Shown here: positions 1,848 through 10,555 of the stretch, one piece after another | Numbering within the stretch: the stretch's first letter is position 1 | Layout: every line of letters begins with the position of its first letter | Assembly (NCBI GenBank): GCA_035281005.1 | Contig: DATEEV010000153.1 | Location: 1 to 12,426 of the forward strand | Length of the DNA stretch: 12,426 bases | Reading direction: 5' to 3' | From: Microthrixaceae bacterium | GTDB lineage: Bacteria; Actinomycetota; Acidimicrobiia; Acidimicrobiales; Microtrichaceae | Translations under genes and position numbers: made by a program | Notes under the pieces: model-generated | Databases searched by the model: none | Told to the model about the DNA's origin: nothing | Seen by the model: only the letters and a program-made list of their open reading frames with translations

Positions 1848-3704
1848 TCAGAGGTTCGTGCACACCGCCGCGGAGTTGACCGGGTCGCCGTCGAAGCGGT
1901 CGAGCAACCATGACGACGTCTCGGCCACGGTCTCCGAGGCCGCACCGCCGTGCCCGGCGTCGGGGTCGTTCAACAACTCGACGTCGGAGCCCGCCGCGCA
2001 CATCGCGGCCACGTTGGCCCGCGTCGTGTGCGGTTCGGTCGTCCCGCTCGGTCCGGTCGGGAAGAGGCTGTCGAGGCCGCCCGTGGTGATGAGCAACGGG
2101 CCCTCGATCGGCGCGTCGATCACGCTCTGGTCTTCGAGCACCGATCGAATCCCGTTCCACACGGGCGAGTCGGGGTCGGTGTAGGCCCCGGTGAACATCA
2201 TCGGCAGGCCGGGCTGCCAGATCCCCGCCGGATAGTTCAGCGGCCCGTTGTTGTAGCCGCCCGCGTAGTTGTAGAGCACGCCGCCCGGCGCGCCGTTGGT
2301 GGCCCACCCGCATCCCACGACCACCCGGTCCTCCCGGGGAATGGACCATGCGGAGTGCTTCCAGTCGAGGTCGTTGAACTCGTTGATCATCTGGTTCTTG
2401 TTCGGCGTGATCAGCGGCACCGACCCGGAGGGCATGGCCGACGGGCCGCTCGTGTACATGTTGTAGAAGGCGTTCCACCCGAGCGGGTCACCGCTGTTCA
2501 TCAGCGACGGGCCGACCGGGTTGAGCGACAGGTTGTTGAGCCGGATCGACTCCTGCGAGTTGTACAGATAGAAGCGGTTGAGCATCGTGCCGAGGTCGGG
2601 GAAGCCCGCGACGTCGGTGGACAGGCCCCAGAGGAGATGCGCACCGAGCGTCATCACGCTGGGCGAGTCGGGCGCGACCGCCCCGTCAGCCGGCCGCGGG
2701 TCGATGCCGCCGGCCTCGCCGGTCACCGCGTCGAGCCAGTAGTCGAAGCTCGCCTGGGGGTTCAGCGCCGGTGCCATCCCGATCGCGCCGACGAGATCGG
2801 TGCCGGCACCGTAGGTCGGCGCGAGCTTCGCCGCGGCGAGCGCGGCATGGCCGCCCTGAGAGTGACCCACCACCCCCCAGGTGAGGCTTGCCCCCACCGC
2901 CGACACCGCGCGCACGGCGTCGATCACGGTTCGGCCCGTCGTGTCGCGGGACAGGTACGGGTTGGAGTTGCCGGCCCAGTTCGGGCCGATCCCGATGTAG
3001 TACGGCGCCTGGACGACCTTGCCCTCCGCGAGGAACTCCGCAGCCAGGTCGGGCACGGCGACGGCCTCCGTCGAGCGGAGGGCCTCGATGAATTTCGCCG
3101 AGTAGGTGGCGTCGAGCGCCTGGTCGCAGGTGCTGTTGATGCCGGCGGTGCCGTGCGTGTACACGGCCTGGTCGGGCGACTGGCCCGAGATGACCGCGCT
3201 GGCTCGCATCGCCATCAGCGTCATCGCGTAGGCCTTCACACCGTTTGCGGTCTCGGTCACGTAGACGACCTGCGCGGCGATGCTGTTCTCGGGGTCGAAC
3301 GGTGACGGGACGACCGGTCGAACCTTGACCACCGAGCCGTTCACGGCGCCCCCGGGAGGGCTCACGCCGAGTGATGCCTCGATGTCGTTCTTGCAGATGT
3401 CGAGCAGGCTCGATGCGTGCAGCTCGGCGCTGAGGATCTCCCACGCCTGGCGCAGGTGGGCACGGTTCGCGGTCAGGCTCACCGAATCCCCGGTCCGGAT
3501 GATGAACTCGGGCAGGTTCGAGGGACACCCGTTGGGTCCGCCACCCGCGCCGGTGCCCGTGGTCGTCGCGCAACCGGCGAACACGAGCGCGACGACGAGG
3601 GCCGCCGCGATCAGTCCGCGGTGTCGCCTTCTACCGCTGTCGCGCCCAGCAGTGGCCGTGGCCACCTTCAGCACGACGCGCTCGCCCGCGCCGTCGTTGT
3701 GCAT
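1848..3704 (-). CDS. Secreted lipase of the LIP family (Pfam 'Secretory lipase'-like), a predicted lipoprotein. Catalytic serine motif is GHSQGG.
   Basis: The ORF is open to 3758. A better start is ATG at 3704 (MHNDGAGE...), with GGAG 7 nt upstream. An alternative is GTG about 15 codons further in. It has an N-terminal basic/hydrophobic signal (RRRHRGLIAAALVVALVFAGC) ending in a lipobox-like FAGC. The GHSQGG nucleophile elbow and a conserved YxxxxGxxxGP..W region are present. The 451-aa antisense ORF 1950-3305 is an R/G/V-rich shadow. Confidence 0.8.
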   Translation of the reverse strand: MHNDGAGERVVLKVATATAGRDSGRRRHRGLIAAALVVALVFAGCATTTGTGAGGGPNGCPSNLPEFIIRTGDSVSLTANRAHLRQAWEILSAELHASSLLDICKNDIEASLGVSPPGGAVNGSVVKVRPVVPSPFDPENSIAAQVVYVTETANGVKAYAMTLMAMRASAVISGQSPDQAVYTHGTAGINSTCDQALDATYSAKFIEALRSTEAVAVPDLAAEFLAEGKVVQAPYYIGIGPNWAGNSNPYLSRDTTGRTVIDAVRAVSAVGASLTWGVVGHSQGGHAALAAAKLAPTYGAGTDLVGAIGMAPALNPQASFDYWLDAVTGEAGGIDPRPADGAVAPDSPSVMTLGAHLLWGLSTDVAGFPDLGTMLNRFYLYNSQESIRLNNLSLNPVGPSLMNSGDPLGWNAFYNMYTSGPSAMPSGSVPLITPNKNQMINEFNDLDWKHSAWSIPREDRVVVGCGWATNGAPGGVLYNYAGGYNNGPLNYPAGIWQPGLPMMFTGAYTDPDSPVWNGIRSVLEDQSVIDAPIEGPLLITTGGLDSLFPTGPSGTTEPHTTRANVAAMCAAGSDVELLNDPDAGHGGAASETVAETSSWLLDRFDGDPVNSAAVCTNL

Positions 3705-3784: not shown

Positions 3785-4297
3785 TCAACGGATGAGGGCG
3801 CGCGTCAGTGGCGGGCCGGCCTCACCCATCCAGGCATCGATCAGCGCGTCGGGCGCGTCGATGTCGTCGCCGGCGATGTAGAGGCCCGGCGCCGGGAGGC
3901 TGGCGCCGATCTCGGCCAGCACGGGGGTGAGGTGCAGGTTGACCGCCAGCGAGTGGTGGTAGGAGCCGCCCGTCATCAACGCGACGGTGGGCAGGCCGTC
4001 CAGCTCACCGTGGCCGAACTGGTCGAGAAAGAGCTTCACCAGGCCGGTGAAGGACGCCTTGTACGTCGGGCTCGCGACGACCAGCGCCCGCGCCGCGAGC
4101 ACCGAGGCCTTGGCGTCGCGGACCTGATCGCTTCCCCACTCGAGCAGGGCCGGACCGAGCTCGGCCAGGTCGATGGTGTCGACCGAGACGTCCGTTCCGG
4201 CGATCCGCGCCAGGTGAGCGCCGACACGTTCGGCCACGGACCGCGTCCGCGAGGCCCGTTGCGGATTGCCCACGACCACGACGATCGATTCGCTCAC
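3785..4297 (-). CDS. NADPH-dependent FMN reductase family protein (SsuE/MsuE-like flavin reductase), about 170 aa, GTG start.
   Basis: The ORF 3785-4645 begins with translated repeat DNA. The protein-like part starts at GTG (4297), with GAGGGAG 5 nt upstream (VSESIVVVVGNPQRASRTRS...). Family motifs are LVVASPTYKASFTGLVKLFLD and a Gly-rich N-terminal loop. It is the right length for this family. Confidence 0.75.
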   Translation of the reverse strand: MSESIVVVVGNPQRASRTRSVAERVGAHLARIAGTDVSVDTIDLAELGPALLEWGSDQVRDAKASVLAARALVVASPTYKASFTGLVKLFLDQFGHGELDGLPTVALMTGGSYHHSLAVNLHLTPVLAEIGASLPAPGLYIAGDDIDAPDALIDAWMGEAGPPLTRALIR

Positions 4298-4301
4298 GGC
4301 A

Positions 4302-4371
4302 GCTCCCTCGGTGCTGGTCCCTCGAGGCAGGTCCCTCGAGGGAGGTCCCTCGATGCTCGTCCCTCGTCGGC
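4302..4371. repeat. Phased tandem repeat of 5 x 14 bp. The core TCCCTCG starts at 4304, 4318, 4332, 4346 and 4360 (units gcTCCCTCGgtgct / ggTCCCTCGaggca / ggTCCCTCGaggga / ggTCCCTCGatgct / cgTCCCTCGtcggc).
   Basis: Direct reading of the sequence shows an exact 14-nt period. On the minus strand each unit reads CGAGGGA, a Shine-Dalgarno-like sequence. Unit 1 is the functional SD of the FMN reductase GTG start. The array lies in the divergent intergenic region 4298-4432. Confidence 0.8.
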
Positions 4372-4432
4372 TGGTTGCTAGCACGTCGACCCGTACGCTC
4401 GGGGCCGACGGACCGAAACGGGAGGTCGCGCG

Positions 4433-4699
4433 ATGCCTCACAAGCTCGGACACACCTTCGACCATTTCGCCAGTCGAACGGCGCGGGTCGCGGGAAGCGC
4501 CTATGCCTTCCAGCACTCGTCGAACAAGGATTCCGAGGCCATCCAGGTGAAGCTCGACGAGATCATCGCGGCGACCAGGGGAGCCAGCAACCGGCTGATC
4601 GCGATCGAGCACCGCGAGGACGATGAGCTCGAGGCCCTCGAGCAACGGTTCGAGCGCCTCGCTCGGCGAGCCAAGCCGTGCCCCCGGAACGACGCATGA
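4433..4699 (+). CDS. Low-affinity iron permease (Fet4-like, PF04120)-related small protein that lacks the central transmembrane core. 88 aa; either a soluble remnant or an in-frame deletion derivative.
   Basis: The ATG at 4433 is preceded by GGGAGG (8 nt). The N-terminus FDHFASRTARVAGSAYAF matches the family N-terminal motif (FxRFAxxxAxxxGSxxAF). The C-terminus QHSSNKDSEAIQVKLDEIIAATRGASNRLIAIE...ELEALEQRFERLARRA matches the family C-terminal motif (QNxQNxDxxAIxLKLDELIRAxxxAxNxLxxLE..EELE). The roughly 45-aa, two-helix membrane segment normally between them is absent. The family assignment is from memory of the motif. Confidence 0.6.
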   Translation: MPHKLGHTFDHFASRTARVAGSAYAFQHSSNKDSEAIQVKLDEIIAATRGASNRLIAIEHREDDELEALEQRFERLARRAKPCPRNDA

Positions 4700-5619
4700 A
4701 CGCGGCGGGAGATCACCCCGACGAGCGCGTGGTCGAGGAGATCTACGAGGCGATGGCGAGTCGAGCCTTCGACCGGCTCTTCGAGCTCGTGCACGAGGAC
4801 GTGGTGATCACTCAGGACCCGGCACTGCCGTGGGGCGGCCGCTTCGAGGGCCACGACGGCCTGGCCACCTTCGCGCTGGGCCTCACCGGCACCATCGAGT
4901 CGCAGGTCACCACCCAGGCGATCGCCCGCGAGGGCCGCCCCGACGAACCAGGCGACGTCGTGCAATGCGGCCACACCCGGGGCACCGTCGTCGCGACCGG
5001 GGTCCCGTTCGACGTCGCCGAGATCCACCGTTGGACGATCCGCGACGGTCGCGCCGTCCGCGCCCACTTCACCATCGAGACGGCGGCCATGCTCACGGCG
5101 CTCGGCGCCGAGGCCGAGACCTGTCCCGTCTGCGGTTTCGTGTGGTCGGCGGTGGCCCGCGAGGAGGTGGGAGCGCGGGTCGTCGCAGCGACTCGAGCCG
5201 TCGCCGACGAGCTGCGTTCACACTCCGACGACGCCGTTGCGCGCCGACCGGAGCCAACCCGCTGGTCGGCGCTCGAGTACGCCGCCCACATGCGAGACGC
5301 GCTCTATCACCTTCGCGACCGCTTCGTCATCGGCCTGGCCGAGGACGCCGCCACCTTCAAGCCGCTCTACCGCGACCTGCGGGTCGAGCTGGGGCTCTAC
5401 CGCGATGATCGACGGGAGGTCGTCGCGACCGAGCTCGAGCTCGCCGCCGACCTGTTCGCGCGGACCTTCGCCGTCCTCGACGACGCCCAGCTCGCGCGCC
5501 CGATCCTGTACACATATCCGGCCGAACAGGTCCGCACGTTGTTATGGATGGGCCAGCACGTGGTGCACGAGCTGGAGCACCATCGCGGCGACGTCGAGGC
5601 CGGCCTTCGGGCCGGCTGA
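4696..5619 (+). CDS. Two-domain protein. N-terminal SnoaL/NTF2-like (ketosteroid-isomerase-like) domain fused to a C-terminal DinB_2/mycothiol-maleylpyruvate-isomerase-N-like metal-binding domain, with a CPVCG Cys pair and a HELEHH motif.
   Basis: ATG 4696 overlaps the upstream TGA (ATGA). An in-frame GTG at 4678 is an alternative start. The first half has the alternating beta-strand pattern typical of SnoaL-like proteins (VVEEIYEAM...VHEDVVITQDP...WTIRDGRAVRAHFTIE). The second half has a DinB-like four-helix pattern with conserved His residues (YAAHMRDALYHL; HVVHELEHHRGD). Confidence 0.7.
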   Translation: MNAAGDHPDERVVEEIYEAMASRAFDRLFELVHEDVVITQDPALPWGGRFEGHDGLATFALGLTGTIESQVTTQAIAREGRPDEPGDVVQCGHTRGTVVATGVPFDVAEIHRWTIRDGRAVRAHFTIETAAMLTALGAEAETCPVCGFVWSAVAREEVGARVVAATRAVADELRSHSDDAVARRPEPTRWSALEYAAHMRDALYHLRDRFVIGLAEDAATFKPLYRDLRVELGLYRDDRREVVATELELAADLFARTFAVLDDAQLARPILYTYPAEQVRTLLWMGQHVVHELEHHRGDVEAGLRAG

Positions 5620-5629
5620 AGCTCAGCCG
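5599..5629. terminator. Two stacked GC hairpins at the convergent junction of genes 4696-5619(+) and 5623-5931(-). GCCGGCC-ttcg-GGCCGGC (5599-5616, UUCG-type tetraloop) and CGGCTGA-agc-TCAGCCG (5613-5629), the latter containing both stop codons.
   Basis: The inverted repeats were read directly. There is no U-tract, which is common for actinobacterial I-shaped terminators. A candidate bidirectional terminator or mRNA 3'-end stabiliser. Confidence 0.3.
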
Positions 5630-5931
5630 AGGATCTTGGCCTTCTGGGCCGCGAACTCCTCGTCGGTGAGCACCCCTGCCGCGTGGAGCTCACCGAGCTT
5701 GGTGAGCTGGTCGAGCACGTCGTCGCCACCACCGCTCGGGGCGGGAGCGGGAACCGGCGCAGGCGCCTGCTGGGCCATGTCCTGGTAGTAGGCCTGGTTG
5801 CGGTTCGCCATCGTCTGGGCGTCCTGCTCGGCAAACTTGCCAGCCTGGCGGCGAGCCACCCGTCCGCTGACCGCAGTGGCGGTGCCGGCGATGACGGCCG
5901 TCCGGGCCATCCCTCGCATGAGTCCTGGCAT
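5623..5931 (-). CDS. SHOCT-domain protein (C-terminal DDVLDQLTKLGELHAAGVLTDEEFAAQKAKIL), with an Ala/Gly-rich N-terminus and a Pro/Ala linker.
   Basis: ATG at 5931 has GAGAGGA 10 nt upstream, overlapping the stop of the preceding gene. The SHOCT motif was recognised by eye. Confidence 0.75.
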   Translation of the reverse strand: MPGLMRGMARTAVIAGTATAVSGRVARRQAGKFAEQDAQTMANRNQAYYQDMAQQAPAPVPAPAPSGGGDDVLDQLTKLGELHAAGVLTDEEFAAQKAKILG

Positions 5932-5944
5932 GTGCTTCGTCCTC

Positions 5945-6388
5945 TCAGTTGTCGAGCGCTTCGAGCGCGTCGAGCGTATCCATGATGTCCTGCCCCGGGA
6001 TCCGCAGGCTCGCGACGAGTTGGCCGCCGGCCTTGCGCGCCCCGGCCACGAAGGGGATCGCCCATGCGTTCTCGTAGACGATCAGCACGGCGACCGTTCC
6101 CGGCGCGATGGCATCGGCTGCCTCGGTGAGCTCATCGTCGCCGAGCAGACCCGATCGCGCACCGGCGAATGCCGCGAAGCCACCGACGGAATCGGGCTCG
6201 AGGTCGGTGATGTCGACGCCCGAGAACGTGCCATCCTCGTCCTTGCGGATGATGAGGAGGTCGTACAGCCGGATCACCCCACGTTCGATCAGGTCGAGCA
6301 GCGCCTCGGCCGCGTCAGCGCCCTTGCCGTTGCCCGGGAACTCGATCAGCACGGCGTCGATCGGCCCGTGCACCTCGATGTCACTCAT
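5945..6388 (-). CDS. Conserved hypothetical protein, 147 aa, acidic, no TM. N-terminal motif is GPIDAVLIEFPGNGKG. It resembles the actinobacterial DUF6325-type family (identifier from memory, unverified).
   Basis: ATG at 6388 has AAGGGAAG upstream. It sits 13 nt from the downstream SHOCT gene and 28 nt after the lipoprotein gene. Its helical, acidic composition supports this over the antisense frame. Confidence 0.65.
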   Translation of the reverse strand: MSDIEVHGPIDAVLIEFPGNGKGADAAEALLDLIERGVIRLYDLLIIRKDEDGTFSGVDITDLEPDSVGGFAAFAGARSGLLGDDELTEAADAIAPGTVAVLIVYENAWAIPFVAGARKAGGQLVASLRIPGQDIMDTLDALEALDN

Positions 6389-6416
6389 CTTCTTCCCTTC
6401 ACAGTTGCCCGTCAGA

Positions 6417-6827
6417 TCAGTCGTCGCCCGTGGTGCAGTCTGCCAGGCCCTGGAGCAAACCGTCCCAGGCGGCCTGCGAAACCTCGTCGACGTCCTCGCG
6501 AATGCTCTGCGCGCTGCGCTGGAGCACCGCGACGTCCTGTTGTAGCAGTTCGTCGTTGCCCTGTACCGAGTGCTCGGCGTAGTCGGCGAGGTTGTTGTCG
6601 ATGTCAGCGCGATCCTCGGCAGTGAACATGGCGTACTTTCCGGCGAGGTCGTCGAGTTGCTCGTCGACGTCCTCGAGGGCCTCCTCGCGGTCCTCCGGCG
6701 ACTCGGCCTCGCGCACGTCGCAGAGCGCTTCGCCGAGTTTCTTGCCGTCGCGCTCTGCGCTGTACTTCTGGCTGCAGCCGCTCGCCACGAGCACCAAGGC
6801 CGCTGTGATCAACACGAGTCGCTTCAT
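6417..6827 (-). CDS. Small, very acidic predicted lipoprotein. Signal peptide MKRLVLITAALVLVASG|C with lipobox LVASGC; the mature form is helical, D/E-rich, with two further Cys.
   Basis: ATG at 6827 has GAGAGAGGAAAG upstream. Only 1 nt separates it from the hdeD-like stop (TGAcATG). Confidence 0.7.
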   Translation of the reverse strand: MKRLVLITAALVLVASGCSQKYSAERDGKKLGEALCDVREAESPEDREEALEDVDEQLDDLAGKYAMFTAEDRADIDNNLADYAEHSVQGNDELLQQDVAVLQRSAQSIREDVDEVSQAAWDGLLQGLADCTTGDD

Positions 6828-6828
6828 G

Positions 6829-7407
6829 TCACTTTCCTCTCTCGACGGAGTGCTGAACAGAACGCAGCTGGAACGCCGTCACGATCTCGGTGATGCCCCG
6901 CATCACGGCGCCGATCCCCACCCACAACACGAGGAGCCACGATGAGCGGCCCGGATAGCCGAGGGCCCAGAGGCCGATGGCGATCTGAGCGATCCCGGCC
7001 GCGAGCAGCAGGCCCCAGAGGTCGAGCTCGTGGCGCGCCGCGATACTGAAGATCACATCGAAGATCCCCTTGAAGAGGAGGTACCACCCGATGAGGAGCG
7101 CCAGGATTCCGAACGTCTGGAACGGGCTCAGGAGCGCCGCGATGCCGGCGACGAGGAACAGGATGCCGAGCAGCGCGTGAAGCCATCGCCAACCCTCGAG
7201 CATCGCCGTGACCATGAACTCGTTGATCCCGGCCGCGATCAGCACGAAGCCCAGCATGTAGCCGATCGTCGCGGCGGAGGTCGGGTCGAATCCCAGGACC
7301 AGGAACGAGATCACGATCCATGCGATCCCGGTGAGCAGGAACAGCCACCAGGCCGGCGAGGTGTCGCGTTCCGCCTCCCTGATGTCCGCGTCGGTGACAA
7401 CGCTCAT
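6829..7407 (-). CDS. hdeD: HdeD-family (DUF308) acid-resistance-type integral membrane protein, 192 aa, about 6 TM segments (WWLFLLTGIAWIVISFLVLGF...).
   Basis: ATG at 7407 has a strong AAGGAGGAAACG RBS. The hydrophobic periodicity and the N-terminal WWL motif are typical of HdeD/DUF308. It is the first gene of a four-gene minus-strand cluster. Confidence 0.85.
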   Translation of the reverse strand: MSVVTDADIREAERDTSPAWWLFLLTGIAWIVISFLVLGFDPTSAATIGYMLGFVLIAAGINEFMVTAMLEGWRWLHALLGILFLVAGIAALLSPFQTFGILALLIGWYLLFKGIFDVIFSIAARHELDLWGLLLAAGIAQIAIGLWALGYPGRSSWLLVLWVGIGAVMRGITEIVTAFQLRSVQHSVERGK

Positions 7408-7517
7408 CGTTTCCTCCTTGTCGGCGGCGGCGGACGCCGCTCGTTCAGCTTGTCCAAAGCGTCAGACACCGTAGATCGGGGCGCATGGTCCCCGGCGGAT
7501 GATCGGACGAACTTCTG

Positions 7518-8438
7518 GTGAAGGTCTTCCTGCTCGGTGGCACCGGAGCGATCGGCCGTCCGGCGGTCGACGCGCTGGTCGCTGCGGGTCACGACGTGAG
7601 TGCGTTGGCCCGAAGCCCGGAACGAGCGCGCACGCTGCGCGCGTTCGGCGCGCGTCCGGTCGAGATCTCGATGTTCGATCTGCCCGCGCTCACCCAGGCC
7701 TTCGTCGGTCACGACGCGGTGGTGAACCTCGCCTCGGCGATGCCGTCGACCGTCCAGTTCGTGCGGCTCGGCGCATGGCGTGACACTCAGCGAATCCGCA
7801 CGGTCGGCTCCGCGCTCGTCGTCGACGCCGCCCTGGCGTCGGACGTGTCGATGCTCGTGCAGGAATCGGTGGCGATGCTGTATGCAGACAAGGGCGACTC
7901 ATGGATCGACGAGCACGCCGCGGTCGATCGGTATCCCATGGCACAGGGGAACCACGCCGCCGAGGCGAGTGCCGAGCGGTTCACCAGCGCCGGTCGAACT
8001 GGGATCGTCCTACGCTTCGGGCTCTTCTACGGACCCGGGGCTCGCCACAGCGAGCAGTTCCTCGCCATGGCCCGGCTCGGTGTGGTGCCCGTCCTCGGTC
8101 ATCCGAGCGGATATCTGTCGTCGATCCACGTTGCTGACGGCGGACGAGCCGTCCCCGCGGTGCTGAGTGCCGCCGCCGGTGTGTACAACGTCGTCGACGA
8201 CGAACCGCTCACGAAGCGCTCCTATGCCGACGCGCTGGCACACGGCGCAGGTCGTCGTCCGTGGCTCCGGGCTCCCGGACGCCTGGCGCAGTTGCTCGGA
8301 CATCGCACGACGTCACTCACCAGATCGATCCGGGTGACCAACGCCAAGCTCACCGCAGCGACCGGATGGGCCCCGGAGTTCCCCAGTGCCCGAGAGGGCT
8401 GGCTGGCGACCGCGACCGCGCTCCAGCGCGGGCGATGA
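7518..8438 (+). CDS. NAD(P)H-binding protein of the atypical SDR / NmrA-like / NAD-dependent epimerase-dehydratase family (N-terminal MKVFLLGGTGAIGRPAVDALVAAGHDV Rossmann motif).
   Basis: GTG at 7518, with GGACGA 7 nt upstream. The GxxGxxG Rossmann fingerprint is at the N-terminus. The gene is 306 aa and divergent from the hdeD-like cluster. Confidence 0.8.
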   Translation: MKVFLLGGTGAIGRPAVDALVAAGHDVSALARSPERARTLRAFGARPVEISMFDLPALTQAFVGHDAVVNLASAMPSTVQFVRLGAWRDTQRIRTVGSALVVDAALASDVSMLVQESVAMLYADKGDSWIDEHAAVDRYPMAQGNHAAEASAERFTSAGRTGIVLRFGLFYGPGARHSEQFLAMARLGVVPVLGHPSGYLSSIHVADGGRAVPAVLSAAAGVYNVVDDEPLTKRSYADALAHGAGRRPWLRAPGRLAQLLGHRTTSLTRSIRVTNAKLTAATGWAPEFPSAREGWLATATALQRGR

Positions 8439-8455: not shown

Positions 8456-10483
8456 CTAACCGTTCGGGCCCGGGATCGGCTCGTCGCCCGTGGGGTCGGA
8501 GTCGACAGCGTTCGCCTCGACGGGTTCGGTGCCACCGGGCTCGGCCCCACCGGCTGATGGGCCGTCGGACCCGTTGACACCGCCGTTGGAGAGGTTGCGC
8601 ATGAGCAACGCGCCGAGGCCACCGAGCACGCCGCCGTCGCCGCCGACCTGGATGTCGGGGACGATCTTCACGTTGCCGGCGCCGATCTCGCGCAGCGCCG
8701 CGACGAGCGCGGTCTGGTCCGAACCGATGGCCTCGCGCTGGGCGTCGAAGCCCTTCGCCCGGGCGAGGCCGAGGGCCTCCTCGGCCGAGGCGTTGGCGTT
8801 GCCGATGTCGCGGGTTCGCGAGGCTTCCGCCGCGCCGGTGACGGTGATGACCGCGGCCTCGCCGTCGGCACGGGCTCGGGCGGCCTCGGCGCGGGACTTC
8901 TCGATGTCGATCGAGACGTTCGCCTGGGCGAGCTGCGACTGCATGTCGGCCACGCCGCGCTGCTGCTCGAGGCTGACGCGGGCTTCCTGGGCCGAGCGCT
9001 GCTGGGCGAAGGTCGTCTTCTCCTGGGCCGCGATCTCACGGCTGGTCAGCACCTCGACGAGATCGACCGGGAACACCACGTCCTGGATGTACACACCGCG
9101 GGTCTCGACCTCGTAACGCGACAGGTACTGCTGGATGTAGCCCTCGGCCGCGTGCTGGACCTCGTCGCGCTTCTCGATGAACTCGGTCGCGCCGAGGGTC
9201 TGCAACTTGTTGCGGATGTAGTTGCCGACTGCCGACTGCAGCACCTCGTTGACGAGGTTCTGCATGGTGCCGACCATGCTGATGACCTTCGGGGCGCGGG
9301 TGTCGGGCACGTGGATCTGCACCTGCAGGTCGATGCTGAACGTGAACGCCTCCTTCGACTTGGCGTCGATCGGGGCGAGGCGCTCGTCGAGGCTGTGGGC
9401 CTCGCTCGTGGCATGCGACCAATTGAGGGTGAGGATCGAGGTCGGCACGATCTCGGCCTCGTAGATGCGCGGGTTGAGCGTGTACTTGCCGGTACGCAGC
9501 GGCTCGGACCAGATGCCCTGGTGGCCAGGTTTCACGATCGAGCCGAACTTGAACTCGGCGCCGGAGGTGTCCTCGGTGGGCAGGCCGACGTAGCTCTTGA
9601 TGACGGCCACCTCACCCTGGCGAACGACGAGCATCTCGCGCAGCTCGACCTTCACCAGGAACGGATTGAGCAGGTACGAGCCGTAGAGGAGGGGATCGTG
9701 CTGGAGGCCGATGCACCCGCCGTTCTCGAGGAACTTCTGGTAGTCCTGATAGTTGTCGTGCAGGTGGTTCTTCGACTTCAGGACCGCCTGGATCACCTGG
9801 CTGGCGGTGCCGGTCGCGCCCTCCATCTGGGTGACGTCGGTGAAGCCGCCGATGCGGCTGGCGATGTCGCCCGAGGGCGGGCCCTCGAGCGTGGTGACGA
9901 CGCCGACGAGGTCGCGGTCGCCCTGGGGTGTGATGTGGGTGACCATCAGCACCGACGGCTCGACCTGGCCGACGGCGGCGAGGGTGGTGTCGGAGATGAC
10001 CTTGCCGAAGACCTCGGCACTGGTGATGACGATGAAGCCGACCGGGTGGATCGGTGCGGTGGTGCCCGGCGGCAGGACGGGACGTTGGACGCCGCGCTGG
10101 CCGGCTTTGGAGAGGAACATTCGCAGATCGGCGAAGCTGCCGTAGTCGGGCAGGTACACGGCGGACTTGGCGCCCGTCGGGAGCGCCTCGCCGACCTGGG
10201 CGATGACGAGACCGATGTGGTCGGGCGGGACCTGGACCCAGGGGTATCGCTCGACCTTGAAGATCGGCCAGAGCTTGAAGCGCAGGCCGGGCATGAGCAG
10301 GTCGGCCTGGAAGCCGGCCTCGCCGTTCAACGCGACGAGCTGGTCGTCCTCGAGCTTGCGGCCGATCCGCTTGGTGACCAGACCGACCTGCGCCGGTCCC
10401 ACCGAGTGGAAGCTGTTGATCACCGGCAGGAGGATGAAGATGAACACCGCCACTGCGATGATCACCACGAGGAACACTCCCAT
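8456..10483 (-). CDS. Flotillin-family SPFH/band-7 membrane protein. It has an N-terminal TM helix, an SPFH domain, a long Ala/Glu/Gln/Arg-rich coiled-coil 'flotillin' region, and a C-terminal Gly/Pro/Asp-rich low-complexity tail.
   Basis: The ORF is open to 10528. The likely start is ATG 10483 (MGVFLVVIIAVAVFIFILLP...), with GAGAGG upstream. ATGs at 10528 and 10513 are alternatives. The SPFH core and EA-rich repeats (AQEKTTFAQQRSAQEARVSLEQQRGVADMQSQLAQANVSIDIEKSRAEAARARADGEAA) are characteristic. The 678-aa antisense ORF 9152-11188 is a shadow. Confidence 0.85.
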   Translation of the reverse strand: MGVFLVVIIAVAVFIFILLPVINSFHSVGPAQVGLVTKRIGRKLEDDQLVALNGEAGFQADLLMPGLRFKLWPIFKVERYPWVQVPPDHIGLVIAQVGEALPTGAKSAVYLPDYGSFADLRMFLSKAGQRGVQRPVLPPGTTAPIHPVGFIVITSAEVFGKVISDTTLAAVGQVEPSVLMVTHITPQGDRDLVGVVTTLEGPPSGDIASRIGGFTDVTQMEGATGTASQVIQAVLKSKNHLHDNYQDYQKFLENGGCIGLQHDPLLYGSYLLNPFLVKVELREMLVVRQGEVAVIKSYVGLPTEDTSGAEFKFGSIVKPGHQGIWSEPLRTGKYTLNPRIYEAEIVPTSILTLNWSHATSEAHSLDERLAPIDAKSKEAFTFSIDLQVQIHVPDTRAPKVISMVGTMQNLVNEVLQSAVGNYIRNKLQTLGATEFIEKRDEVQHAAEGYIQQYLSRYEVETRGVYIQDVVFPVDLVEVLTSREIAAQEKTTFAQQRSAQEARVSLEQQRGVADMQSQLAQANVSIDIEKSRAEAARARADGEAAVITVTGAAEASRTRDIGNANASAEEALGLARAKGFDAQREAIGSDQTALVAALREIGAGNVKIVPDIQVGGDGGVLGGLGALLMRNLSNGGVNGSDGPSAGGAEPGGTEPVEANAVDSDPTGDEPIPGPNG

Positions 10484-10555
10484 GAGCCCTGCCTCTCGCG
10501 GGCCGCACCCCATGCAGCCCTTCGTCACTGCCGAGGCTACGGCGGTGGAGCCGAT

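Follow-up and report, generated by a model that had tools for sequence, protein, structure and literature searches.

The DUF308/HdeD family of membrane proteins is very widespread and acts by an unknown mechanism, yet its members aid resistance to acid, heat and chlorine in enterobacteria. In Klebsiella, a single operon contains hdeD and hdeB, yfdX is its neighbour, and acid survival falls when hdeD or yfdX is deleted (PMC6394985); on the tLST, resistance to heat and chlorine depends on each of hdeD_GI, pscA and pscB, the latter two encoding YfdX proteins (PMC8407380). Given these two precedents, an HdeD-family membrane protein accompanied by a small secreted helical protein constitutes a known organisation. 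The present analysis concerns a cluster of four minus-strand genes, here named A to D, at positions 5623-7407 of a 12,426-nucleotide window (the whole stretch of DNA that was analysed, from contig DATEEV010000153.1 of the Microthrixaceae bacterium assembly GCA_035281005.1), in which a DUF308 gene (A) is followed by genes for an acidic lipoprotein (B), a DUF6325 protein (C) and a SHOCT-domain protein (D). The original prediction for this locus, made by reading its sequence, had proposed a candidate envelope-stress module and had pointed to the position of hdeD beside hdeAB, genes for small acidic periplasmic chaperones, in enterobacteria; an operon association of HdeD-family genes with small secreted helical stress proteins in Proteobacteria is borne out by the published hdeDB (PMC6394985) and pscA-pscB-hdeD (PMC8407380) arrangements.

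As in Klebsiella pneumoniae hdeDB and Escherichia coli hdeAB/hdeD, an HdeD-family gene shares an operon (a probable one here) with the gene directly downstream of it, which codes for a small secreted acidic helical protein with a disulfide (a putative one in B), and the locus is also comparable to tLST pscAB-hdeD, in which the neighbours of an HdeD homologue encode secreted, heat-stable, alpha-helical YfdX/Psc proteins. There are clear differences from both. HdeA and HdeB are soluble and approximately 90 residues long, whereas B is predicted to be a lipid-anchored bundle of approximately 119 residues; the window host, unlike the hosts of hdeD, is a monoderm actinobacterium without an outer-membrane-bounded periplasm; and the tLST is a large mobile island with small heat-shock proteins, ClpK and KefB, none of which flank the cluster described here. 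By analogy, the A-B pair may be regarded as a non-homologous actinobacterial version of the organisation in which HdeD is joined by a small secreted protein. The cluster as a whole is interpreted here, with about an even chance of being right, as a composite operon of two independently conserved two-gene cassettes of unknown function, A-B and C-D, and the supposed four-gene module is better studied as two cassettes.

Organisation of the cluster

Genes A (6829-7407, 192 amino acids), B (6417-6827, 136 amino acids), C (5945-6388, 147 amino acids) and D (5623-5931, 102 amino acids) were all located on the minus strand from the open reading frame (ORF) listing, with A, C and D assigned by Pfam to DUF308, DUF6325 and SHOCT, and B falling in no Pfam family. 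The listing and the sequence give intergenic gaps of exactly 1, 28 and 13 nt for A/B, B/C and C/D, such that the ATG of B lies 1 nt past the stop codon of A. A purine-rich Shine-Dalgarno site could be read from the sequence before each gene: AAGGAGGA at 7419-7412 for A; GAGAGAGGAAAG for B, ending at 6832 and abutting the A stop codon (6831-6829); GAAGGGAAG for C, within the 28-nt B/C spacer; and GAGAGGA at 5946-5940 for D, overlapping the C stop codon (5947-5945). The four reading frames, the gaps and the presence of a Shine-Dalgarno site before each gene were as first described, and the labels given to the four products (hdeD-like, lipoprotein, GPID-motif and SHOCT) were also correct, with Pfam supplying the families DUF308, DUF6325 and SHOCT. 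A promoter and terminator scan found no terminator-like site between any of the four genes. A single strand, short junctions and the lack of a detected internal terminator fit one operon, as had been claimed, and the four genes are probably co-transcribed as one composite operon.

A DUF308 protein and its dedicated lipoprotein partner

Protein A matches Pfam PF03729 (DUF308) at 73.7 bits, against a cut-off of 25, over three repeat stretches. Its score against the NCBIfam HdeD equivalog NF007577 is 37.4 bits, far below the cut-off of 189, and A is thus a member of the DUF308 family and not an HdeD orthologue. Hydropathy indicates approximately six hydrophobic spans (window scores 1.7-2.5), and by the positive-inside rule both termini would be cytoplasmic, in which case three short loops would face outward. 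The segments PFQTFG and GYPGRS, each invariant in an alignment of 11 A orthologues, fall in two of the predicted outward loops. At two other loci (L006, 5393-5960, and L018, 3396-3942) the DUF308 gene matches as two overlapping pieces in different frames, suggesting frameshifts that could be either assembly errors or pseudogenisation.

To establish the gene neighbourhood of B, a scan with an alignment of the B family was made at one genome per species, which yielded 15 loci, and loci fetched for identical B proteins brought the set to 21. By phmmer, 20 of these 21 loci have gene A as the immediate upstream neighbour of B, the sole exception being L020, which holds a truncated, divergent B with no DUF308 gene upstream. 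In the reverse direction, loci were fetched for four further A homologues, and B was directly downstream of A at all nine. The A-B gap ranges from a 4-nt overlap to approximately 60 nt. All 15 loci of the scan are metagenome-assembled genomes (MAGs), most of them labelled as Acidimicrobiia taxa and four only as Actinomycetota or Actinomycetes, and the pair was accordingly found almost only in Acidimicrobiia MAGs. This two-way co-occurrence argues that A and B are a strict conserved pair in which B is the dedicated partner of A, and it upholds the earlier suggestion that the lipoprotein belongs with the hdeD-like gene. A literature search found no link of DUF308 to a lipoprotein partner.

Some A-B loci have further features of their own. 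The exceptional B homologue in L020 (3944-4291) is 115 amino acids long, has neither signal peptide nor lipobox, and may be a decayed copy. In loci L002-L005, a gene for a 123-amino-acid SpoIIAA-like protein (PF11964; 6434-6805 in L002) directly follows A-B and a TetR gene precedes it, and a matching 123-amino-acid SpoIIAA-like gene was identified by eye from its N-terminal sequence at 4443-4814 in L012. The SpoIIAA-like gene is an alternative third gene after A-B, in place of C-D.

Protein B begins with a signal peptide, composed of MKR and a hydrophobic core, followed by the lipobox VASG-C18. All of 27 close and 18 divergent homologues retain Cys18, the pattern required of a lipoprotein, and B is predicted to be exported and lipid-anchored at this residue. 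The mature protein of 119 residues has an isoelectric point of 4.05, with 33 aspartate and glutamate residues against 10 lysine and arginine residues. It contains exactly two cysteines besides the anchor, C36 and C131, which are at least 90% conserved in the divergent members and are both absent in the sole outlier, P0316. An AlphaFold2 model of B (pLDDT 86.6) consists entirely of helices, at 20-40, 44-65, 70-89, 92-110 and 115-132, and places C36 near the C-terminal end of the first helix (H1) and C131 near that of the fifth (H5). As H1 and H5 would run parallel in an up-down bundle, this placement is compatible with a disulfide, and a C36-C131 bond is probably present. The family is small, comprising 229 clusters at 90% identity and, among 1.84 billion representatives, 76 clusters at 50% identity, many of which are fragments; a sequence identical to the window protein (100%) is annotated as hypothetical in a Microthrixaceae MAG. 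B represents a new, small, predicted helical-bundle family.

The analogy of B with HdeA/HdeB was borne out at the level of gene organisation only. B has a dedicated membrane partner, and its two cysteines are conserved or lost together; there is no similarity of sequence or fold to HdeA/HdeB. Homology to HdeA/HdeB was detected neither in Pfam and NCBIfam at E ≤ 1 nor against all PDB sequences at E ≤ 10, and HdeA/HdeB were absent among the fold matches of B, which gave no sign of an HdeA-type fold. B does have the generic traits of these proteins, being small, acidic, exported and helical with two conserved cysteines, traits that do not in themselves confer membership. Similarly, there was no YfdX match for B or its 18 divergent relatives at E ≤ 1, nor any in the PDB sequence or fold searches. 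The closest approach to a named family was the NCBIfam model NF052504 (sll1863), which four of the 18 divergent B members match along helices 2-5 at model positions 6-90, with scores of 27.8, 20.1, 17.8 and 16.2 bits (17.8 for the window B; best E among the relatives 2.2e-6), all below the cut-off of 35. These repeated, co-linear, sub-threshold matches make a distant relationship of B to the sll1863 family possible. No protein of Synechocystis is more strongly induced by salt than Sll1863, which has no known function and whose knockout shows no salt phenotype (PMC8670252).

Two other explanations of B bear on how the A-B cassette is understood. In the first, B would be an extracytoplasmic buffer or sensor of cations (Ca2+, Mg2+ or a metal) that contributes with A to ion homeostasis and is not chaperone-like. 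The extreme acidity of the mature protein is consistent with this, as is the invariance of E25, E71, D72, D82, E85, H86 and D98 among close relatives. P-type cation ATPase genes are also found directly after or beside A-B in L016, L019, L009/L010 and L111-113 and approximately 6 kb away in L006, and SulP transporter genes occur near some A-B loci. However, divergent members show no conservation of H86 or of most acidic positions, no metal-binding family or fold was matched specifically, and the ATPase association is confined to a minority of loci and is absent from the window. A cation-binding B is consequently held to be distinctly unlikely. In the second explanation, B would be a four-helix bundle that senses a ligand, as the periplasmic sensor domains of TorS, NarX, Tar and QseE do, and signals via A to cytoplasmic C-D. 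This is highly improbable: de novo bundles, alpha-catenin, cytochrome b562 and PsbQ score equally in the fold list, which marks the fold as generic, Foldseek returned nothing for the model at E < 0.5, and there is no consistent neighbour that encodes a kinase, cyclase or transcription factor.

The DUF6325-SHOCT pair

Protein C matches Pfam PF19850 (DUF6325) over residues 7-142 at 43.8 bits (cut-off 23.4), and all 31 of its aligned homologues match the same family. It has an isoelectric point of 4.05 and carries the motif HGPID..VLIEFPG, within which G8, P9, D11 and F17 are invariant in the 31 homologues. The peak hydropathy window score of 1.59, compared with 1.7-2.5 for the spans of A, gives no clear stretch of transmembrane grade, and C is predicted to be a soluble acidic DUF6325 protein of alpha/beta fold. 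A total of 2164 homologues were found, and the few with taxon names are Microthrixaceae, Acidimicrobiales or Euzebyales. Fused DUF6325-SHOCT proteins were considered as an explanation for the longer C homologues and rejected, the extra length being N-terminal and due to start-codon miscalls. In one Acidimicrobiales genome (L022), two DUF6325 paralogues occur within 4 kb (1-342 and 4001-4435), indicating that the family is multi-copy in some genomes. A literature search found no mention of DUF6325.

More distant relationships of C are faint. Weak Rotamase_2 matches occur in 18 of the 31 homologues (best E 9e-4), and the fold search gives them no backing. Comparison with DUF1269 (PF06897) by hhalign extends over 114 columns with an E of 4e-4 and a probability of 34%, which is below the family threshold. 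The two families share a beta-alpha-beta N-terminus and a C-terminal alpha-beta-alpha part, and the alignment shows that C lacks the central glycine-zipper transmembrane insert of DUF1269. The DUF1269 model gives no hit to C itself at E ≤ 1 and weak hits to eight of the 31 homologues (best E 0.027), and two C homologues, P0228 and P0240, carry the NCBI name DUF1269.

Protein D matches Pfam PF09851 (SHOCT) at 42.2 bits, against a cut-off of 27, with residues 74-101 aligned to model positions 1-28. It is made up of three parts: a near-invariant N-terminal motif, MPGLLRGVARTAVVAGTATAVSGRVQRRQAE, a linker rich in proline, glutamine and alanine, and the C-terminal SHOCT hairpin. In an alignment of 61 orthologues the N-terminal motif is more conserved than the SHOCT domain, and hydropathy shows no transmembrane segment. 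The description of SHOCT as an oligomerisation motif, adopted in the original prediction, goes beyond the evidence, given that the founding paper proposed oligomerisation and its own experiment did not support it (PMC3581485); in a later comparative study, SHOCT-like domains are predicted to tether proteins or domains to the inner leaflet (PMC11237479). D resembles other SHOCT proteins, such as Band-7-SHOCT and phage shock protein (PSP)-associated ones, in ending with a canonical 28-residue hairpin. Unlike the Band-7-SHOCT proteins, D stands alone, combining an invariant N-terminal motif of its own with an obligate partner of the DUF6325 family, an architecture that the literature search did not return. 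No PspA, PspC, LiaF or Toastrack genes are near the window cluster. A 60-amino-acid ORF between C and A in L008 (approximately 3140-3325) has the D motif (ARTAAVVGTTAVVAHGV-RRR) and a tail rich in arginine and aspartate, with no linker or SHOCT domain, and it follows that the N-terminal motif may be the essential part of D.

The pairing of C with D was assessed in 74 distinct metagenomic loci, 64 of which have room for D; the gene after C is D in 60 of these 64, the gap having a median of approximately 11 nt. Two genomes have the pair with neither A nor B nearby, in the arrangement DUF7144-C-D in an Acidimicrobiales genome and DUF1269-C-D in a Euzebyales genome. Upstream of C-D, the neighbours are DUF7144 in 10 of 40 loci, DUF1269 in 5, SulP in 4, and PLDc_N and SHOCT in 2 each, and downstream they are pyridoxal phosphate (PLP)-dependent decarboxylases and Ion_trans_2 K+ channels in 4 of 33 loci each and DUF308 in 2. 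The recurring theme across these minority associations is one of small multi-pass membrane proteins together with genes for ion or pH handling. The literature search, confined to titles and abstracts, gave nothing on the function of DUF1269 or DUF7144.

Several of these neighbourhoods were also inspected individually. DUF7144, the commonest upstream neighbour, is found just upstream of C in L022, L058, L076, L078, L079, L080, L085, L095 and L102. It has the motif W-x-W-x-H-L-x-G in common with A, and homology between the DUF7144 and A families was considered and not established, as hhalign aligned only the 22 columns of this motif at a probability of 29%. PLP-dependent decarboxylase genes come directly after C-D in several metagenomic loci, as do K+ channel genes (L049, L068, L069, L058 and L079 downstream of C-D; also L024, L089 and L092), and some of the adjacent decarboxylases are glutamate-decarboxylase-like when their N-termini are judged by eye. 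The decarboxylase and K+ channel neighbours hint at a context of pH or ion homeostasis.

Association between the two cassettes

The four-gene arrangement proved, once the neighbourhoods were compared, not to be conserved, and splits into A-B and C-D pairs that are mostly apart. Among approximately 20 loci ascertained through A or B, C is nearby in only three (L008, L012 and L019), and among the 74 loci ascertained through C, A-B is nearby in only three (L039, L046 and L047). Touching pairs share a strand in every case. Only the genome of the window, whose four genes recur on an ENA contig, showed the order A-B-C-D, and other loci with touching pairs usually have the order C-D-A-B, as in L012, where the genes are tightly packed with gaps of 13, 26 and 27 nt; L039 has C-A-B without D. 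In a rough neighbour-joining tree of C, which has no support values and includes metagenomic loci of unassigned taxonomy, the C genes adjoining A-B are spread over at least three to four branches. The nearest relatives of the window C (71% identity) are C genes that have DUF1269, rather than A-B, beside them. The variable order and the origin of the C genes in several branches are consistent with repeated juxtaposition, rather than with the inheritance of a single block, and suggest that C-D and A-B are loosely linked in function and do not form one machine.

These observations weigh heavily against the possibility of one dedicated four-component envelope-stress machine, in which all four proteins would be obligate subunits spanning the membrane. 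The very tight spacing in the window with its coupled ribosome-binding sites, the equally packed genes of L012, and a set of proteins that covers both faces of the membrane would all fit such a machine. Against this, approximately 85% of the loci ascertained through A or B have no C or D within 3-4 kb, approximately 96% of C-D loci have no A-B, and gene order varies among genomes, with D missing in L039 and the D-like ORF of L008 lacking SHOCT. The single machine is therefore very unlikely, and largely refuted by synteny.

The opposite possibility is that the cassettes are functionally unrelated, their adjacency being the result of rearrangement or operon drift and any read-through between them meaningless. 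In many genomes each cassette is found by itself in fully conserved form, and the other flanking genes are highly variable, both of which accord with unrelated cassettes. However, the pairs adjoin in at least seven loci, invariably sharing a strand, and they do so in two orders and with C genes that belong to several branches. C-D also adjoins other, more distant DUF308 proteins in L041 and L103 and, more often, other small multi-pass membrane proteins, and such a pattern would be hard to obtain by chance for a gene with a few copies per genome. Meaningless adjacency is thus rather unlikely.

Proposed function of the two cassettes

If the composite arrangement of two cassettes is correct, B in the first cassette would be produced in translational coupling with A, exported and lipid-anchored at Cys18, with a C36-C131 disulfide stapling its helical bundle. 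From the outer surface of the cytoplasmic membrane, B would then contact the outward loops of A that carry PFQTFG and GYPGRS. The two together would serve in extracytoplasmic protection or sensing, and in their organisation they parallel HdeD with HdeB or YfdX. In the second cassette, the invariant N-terminal peptide of D would bind soluble C, and the SHOCT hairpin of D would keep the C-D complex just beneath the membrane or attached to small membrane proteins from the cytoplasmic side. In Actinomycetota at large, C-D is found beside interchangeable DUF7144, DUF1269 and DUF308 proteins, and also beside K+ channels, SulP transporters and PLP-dependent decarboxylases, and A is its local membrane neighbour in this particular genome. 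Judged from precedent and gene neighbourhood, the likely role would be in membrane or envelope stress or in ion or pH homeostasis; the case for an envelope-stress role of the cluster is circumstantial.

A number of observations count against this interpretation. Most A-B loci have no C-D and most C-D loci have no DUF308 gene, which makes the link between the cassettes facultative. B has no detectable homology to HdeA, HdeB or YfdX, and the analogy is consequently limited to gene organisation and gross properties. The N-terminal segment of D is neither clearly hydrophobic nor strongly amphipathic, by hydropathy and hydrophobic moment, and the themes among C-D neighbours (ion transport and decarboxylases) are minority associations derived from a crude gene caller. 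PDB sequence searches with A, B, C and D returned nothing, there being no solved structure for these families. Finally, no promoter or operator motif is common to the regions upstream of A in the window and 17 other A-B loci: in a k-mer comparison of these 18 regions, the Shine-Dalgarno site was the sole shared element, with no common promoter of extracytoplasmic function (ECF) type.

A more ambitious version would make DUF6325-SHOCT a general cytoplasmic adaptor on small, multi-pass, HdeD-like membrane proteins across Actinomycetota, with A-B-C-D as a complete trans-membrane complex for stress sensing or protection. The docking partners of the adaptor would be DUF308, DUF7144 and DUF1269, and the DUF308 proteins of Acidimicrobiia would add a disulfide-stapled lipoprotein on the outside. 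This is given little credence, and if true would reveal what the long-enigmatic HdeD/DUF308 family does. The strict pairing of A with a translationally coupled lipoprotein, in a phylum distant from the enterobacteria, leads to the hypothesis that HdeD-type proteins are membrane platforms for small secreted helical proteins, and offers a tractable pair. The DUF6325-SHOCT pair, for all its thousands of members, is absent from the literature and could help to define the function of SHOCT. Should neither cassette have a stress phenotype, they would be merely one more pair of conserved hypothetical operons.

Flanking regions and surrounding genes

The intergenic region upstream of A (7408-7517, minus strand), presumed to hold the promoter and 5' untranslated region, is shared with a divergent NAD-epimerase gene on the plus strand (7518-8438), and a simple scan found no sigma-70-type promoter in it. 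At the other end of the cluster, a GC-rich hairpin (GCCGGCC-CGAA-GGCCGGC, 5599-5616, minus strand) begins 6 nt past the D stop codon. It lacks a T-tract and was not called by the terminator scan, and the 56-nt stretch around its 7-bp stem is no more stable than shuffled sequence (z = -0.9); on this weak evidence, it may mark the end of the transcript. The hairpin lies within the last codons of a convergent plus-strand gene (4678-5619) with SnoaL_2 and DinB_2 domains, the stop codons of this gene and D being separated by 3 nt. Searches of the whole window for Rfam families and tRNAs, and of 5400-7700 for repeats, gave nothing relevant. PADLOC defence-system models matched none of A, C and D, and B matched only PbeC, marginally (E 0.0011, 15.9 bits).

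Beyond the epimerase gene, the only gene in between, a minus-strand gene for a 690-amino-acid Band_7/SPFH (flotillin-like) protein with an apparent N-terminal membrane segment (8456-10528) is situated upstream of the cluster at a distance of approximately 1 kb. Band-7 domains are the most frequent fusion partners of SHOCT (PMC3581485), and the proximity of the Band_7 gene may be meaningful or may be a coincidence. On the opposite side of the cluster, SnoaL_2 genes like the convergent one recur near C-D or A-B in L022 and possibly, from visual inspection only, in L007. An 88-amino-acid plus-strand ORF (4433-4699) overlaps the start of the convergent gene (4678) by 22 nt. Its match to the low-affinity iron permease family PF04120 is limited to the C-terminal half of the model (positions 61-116 of 128), and the ORF could be either a short stand-alone form or a remnant.

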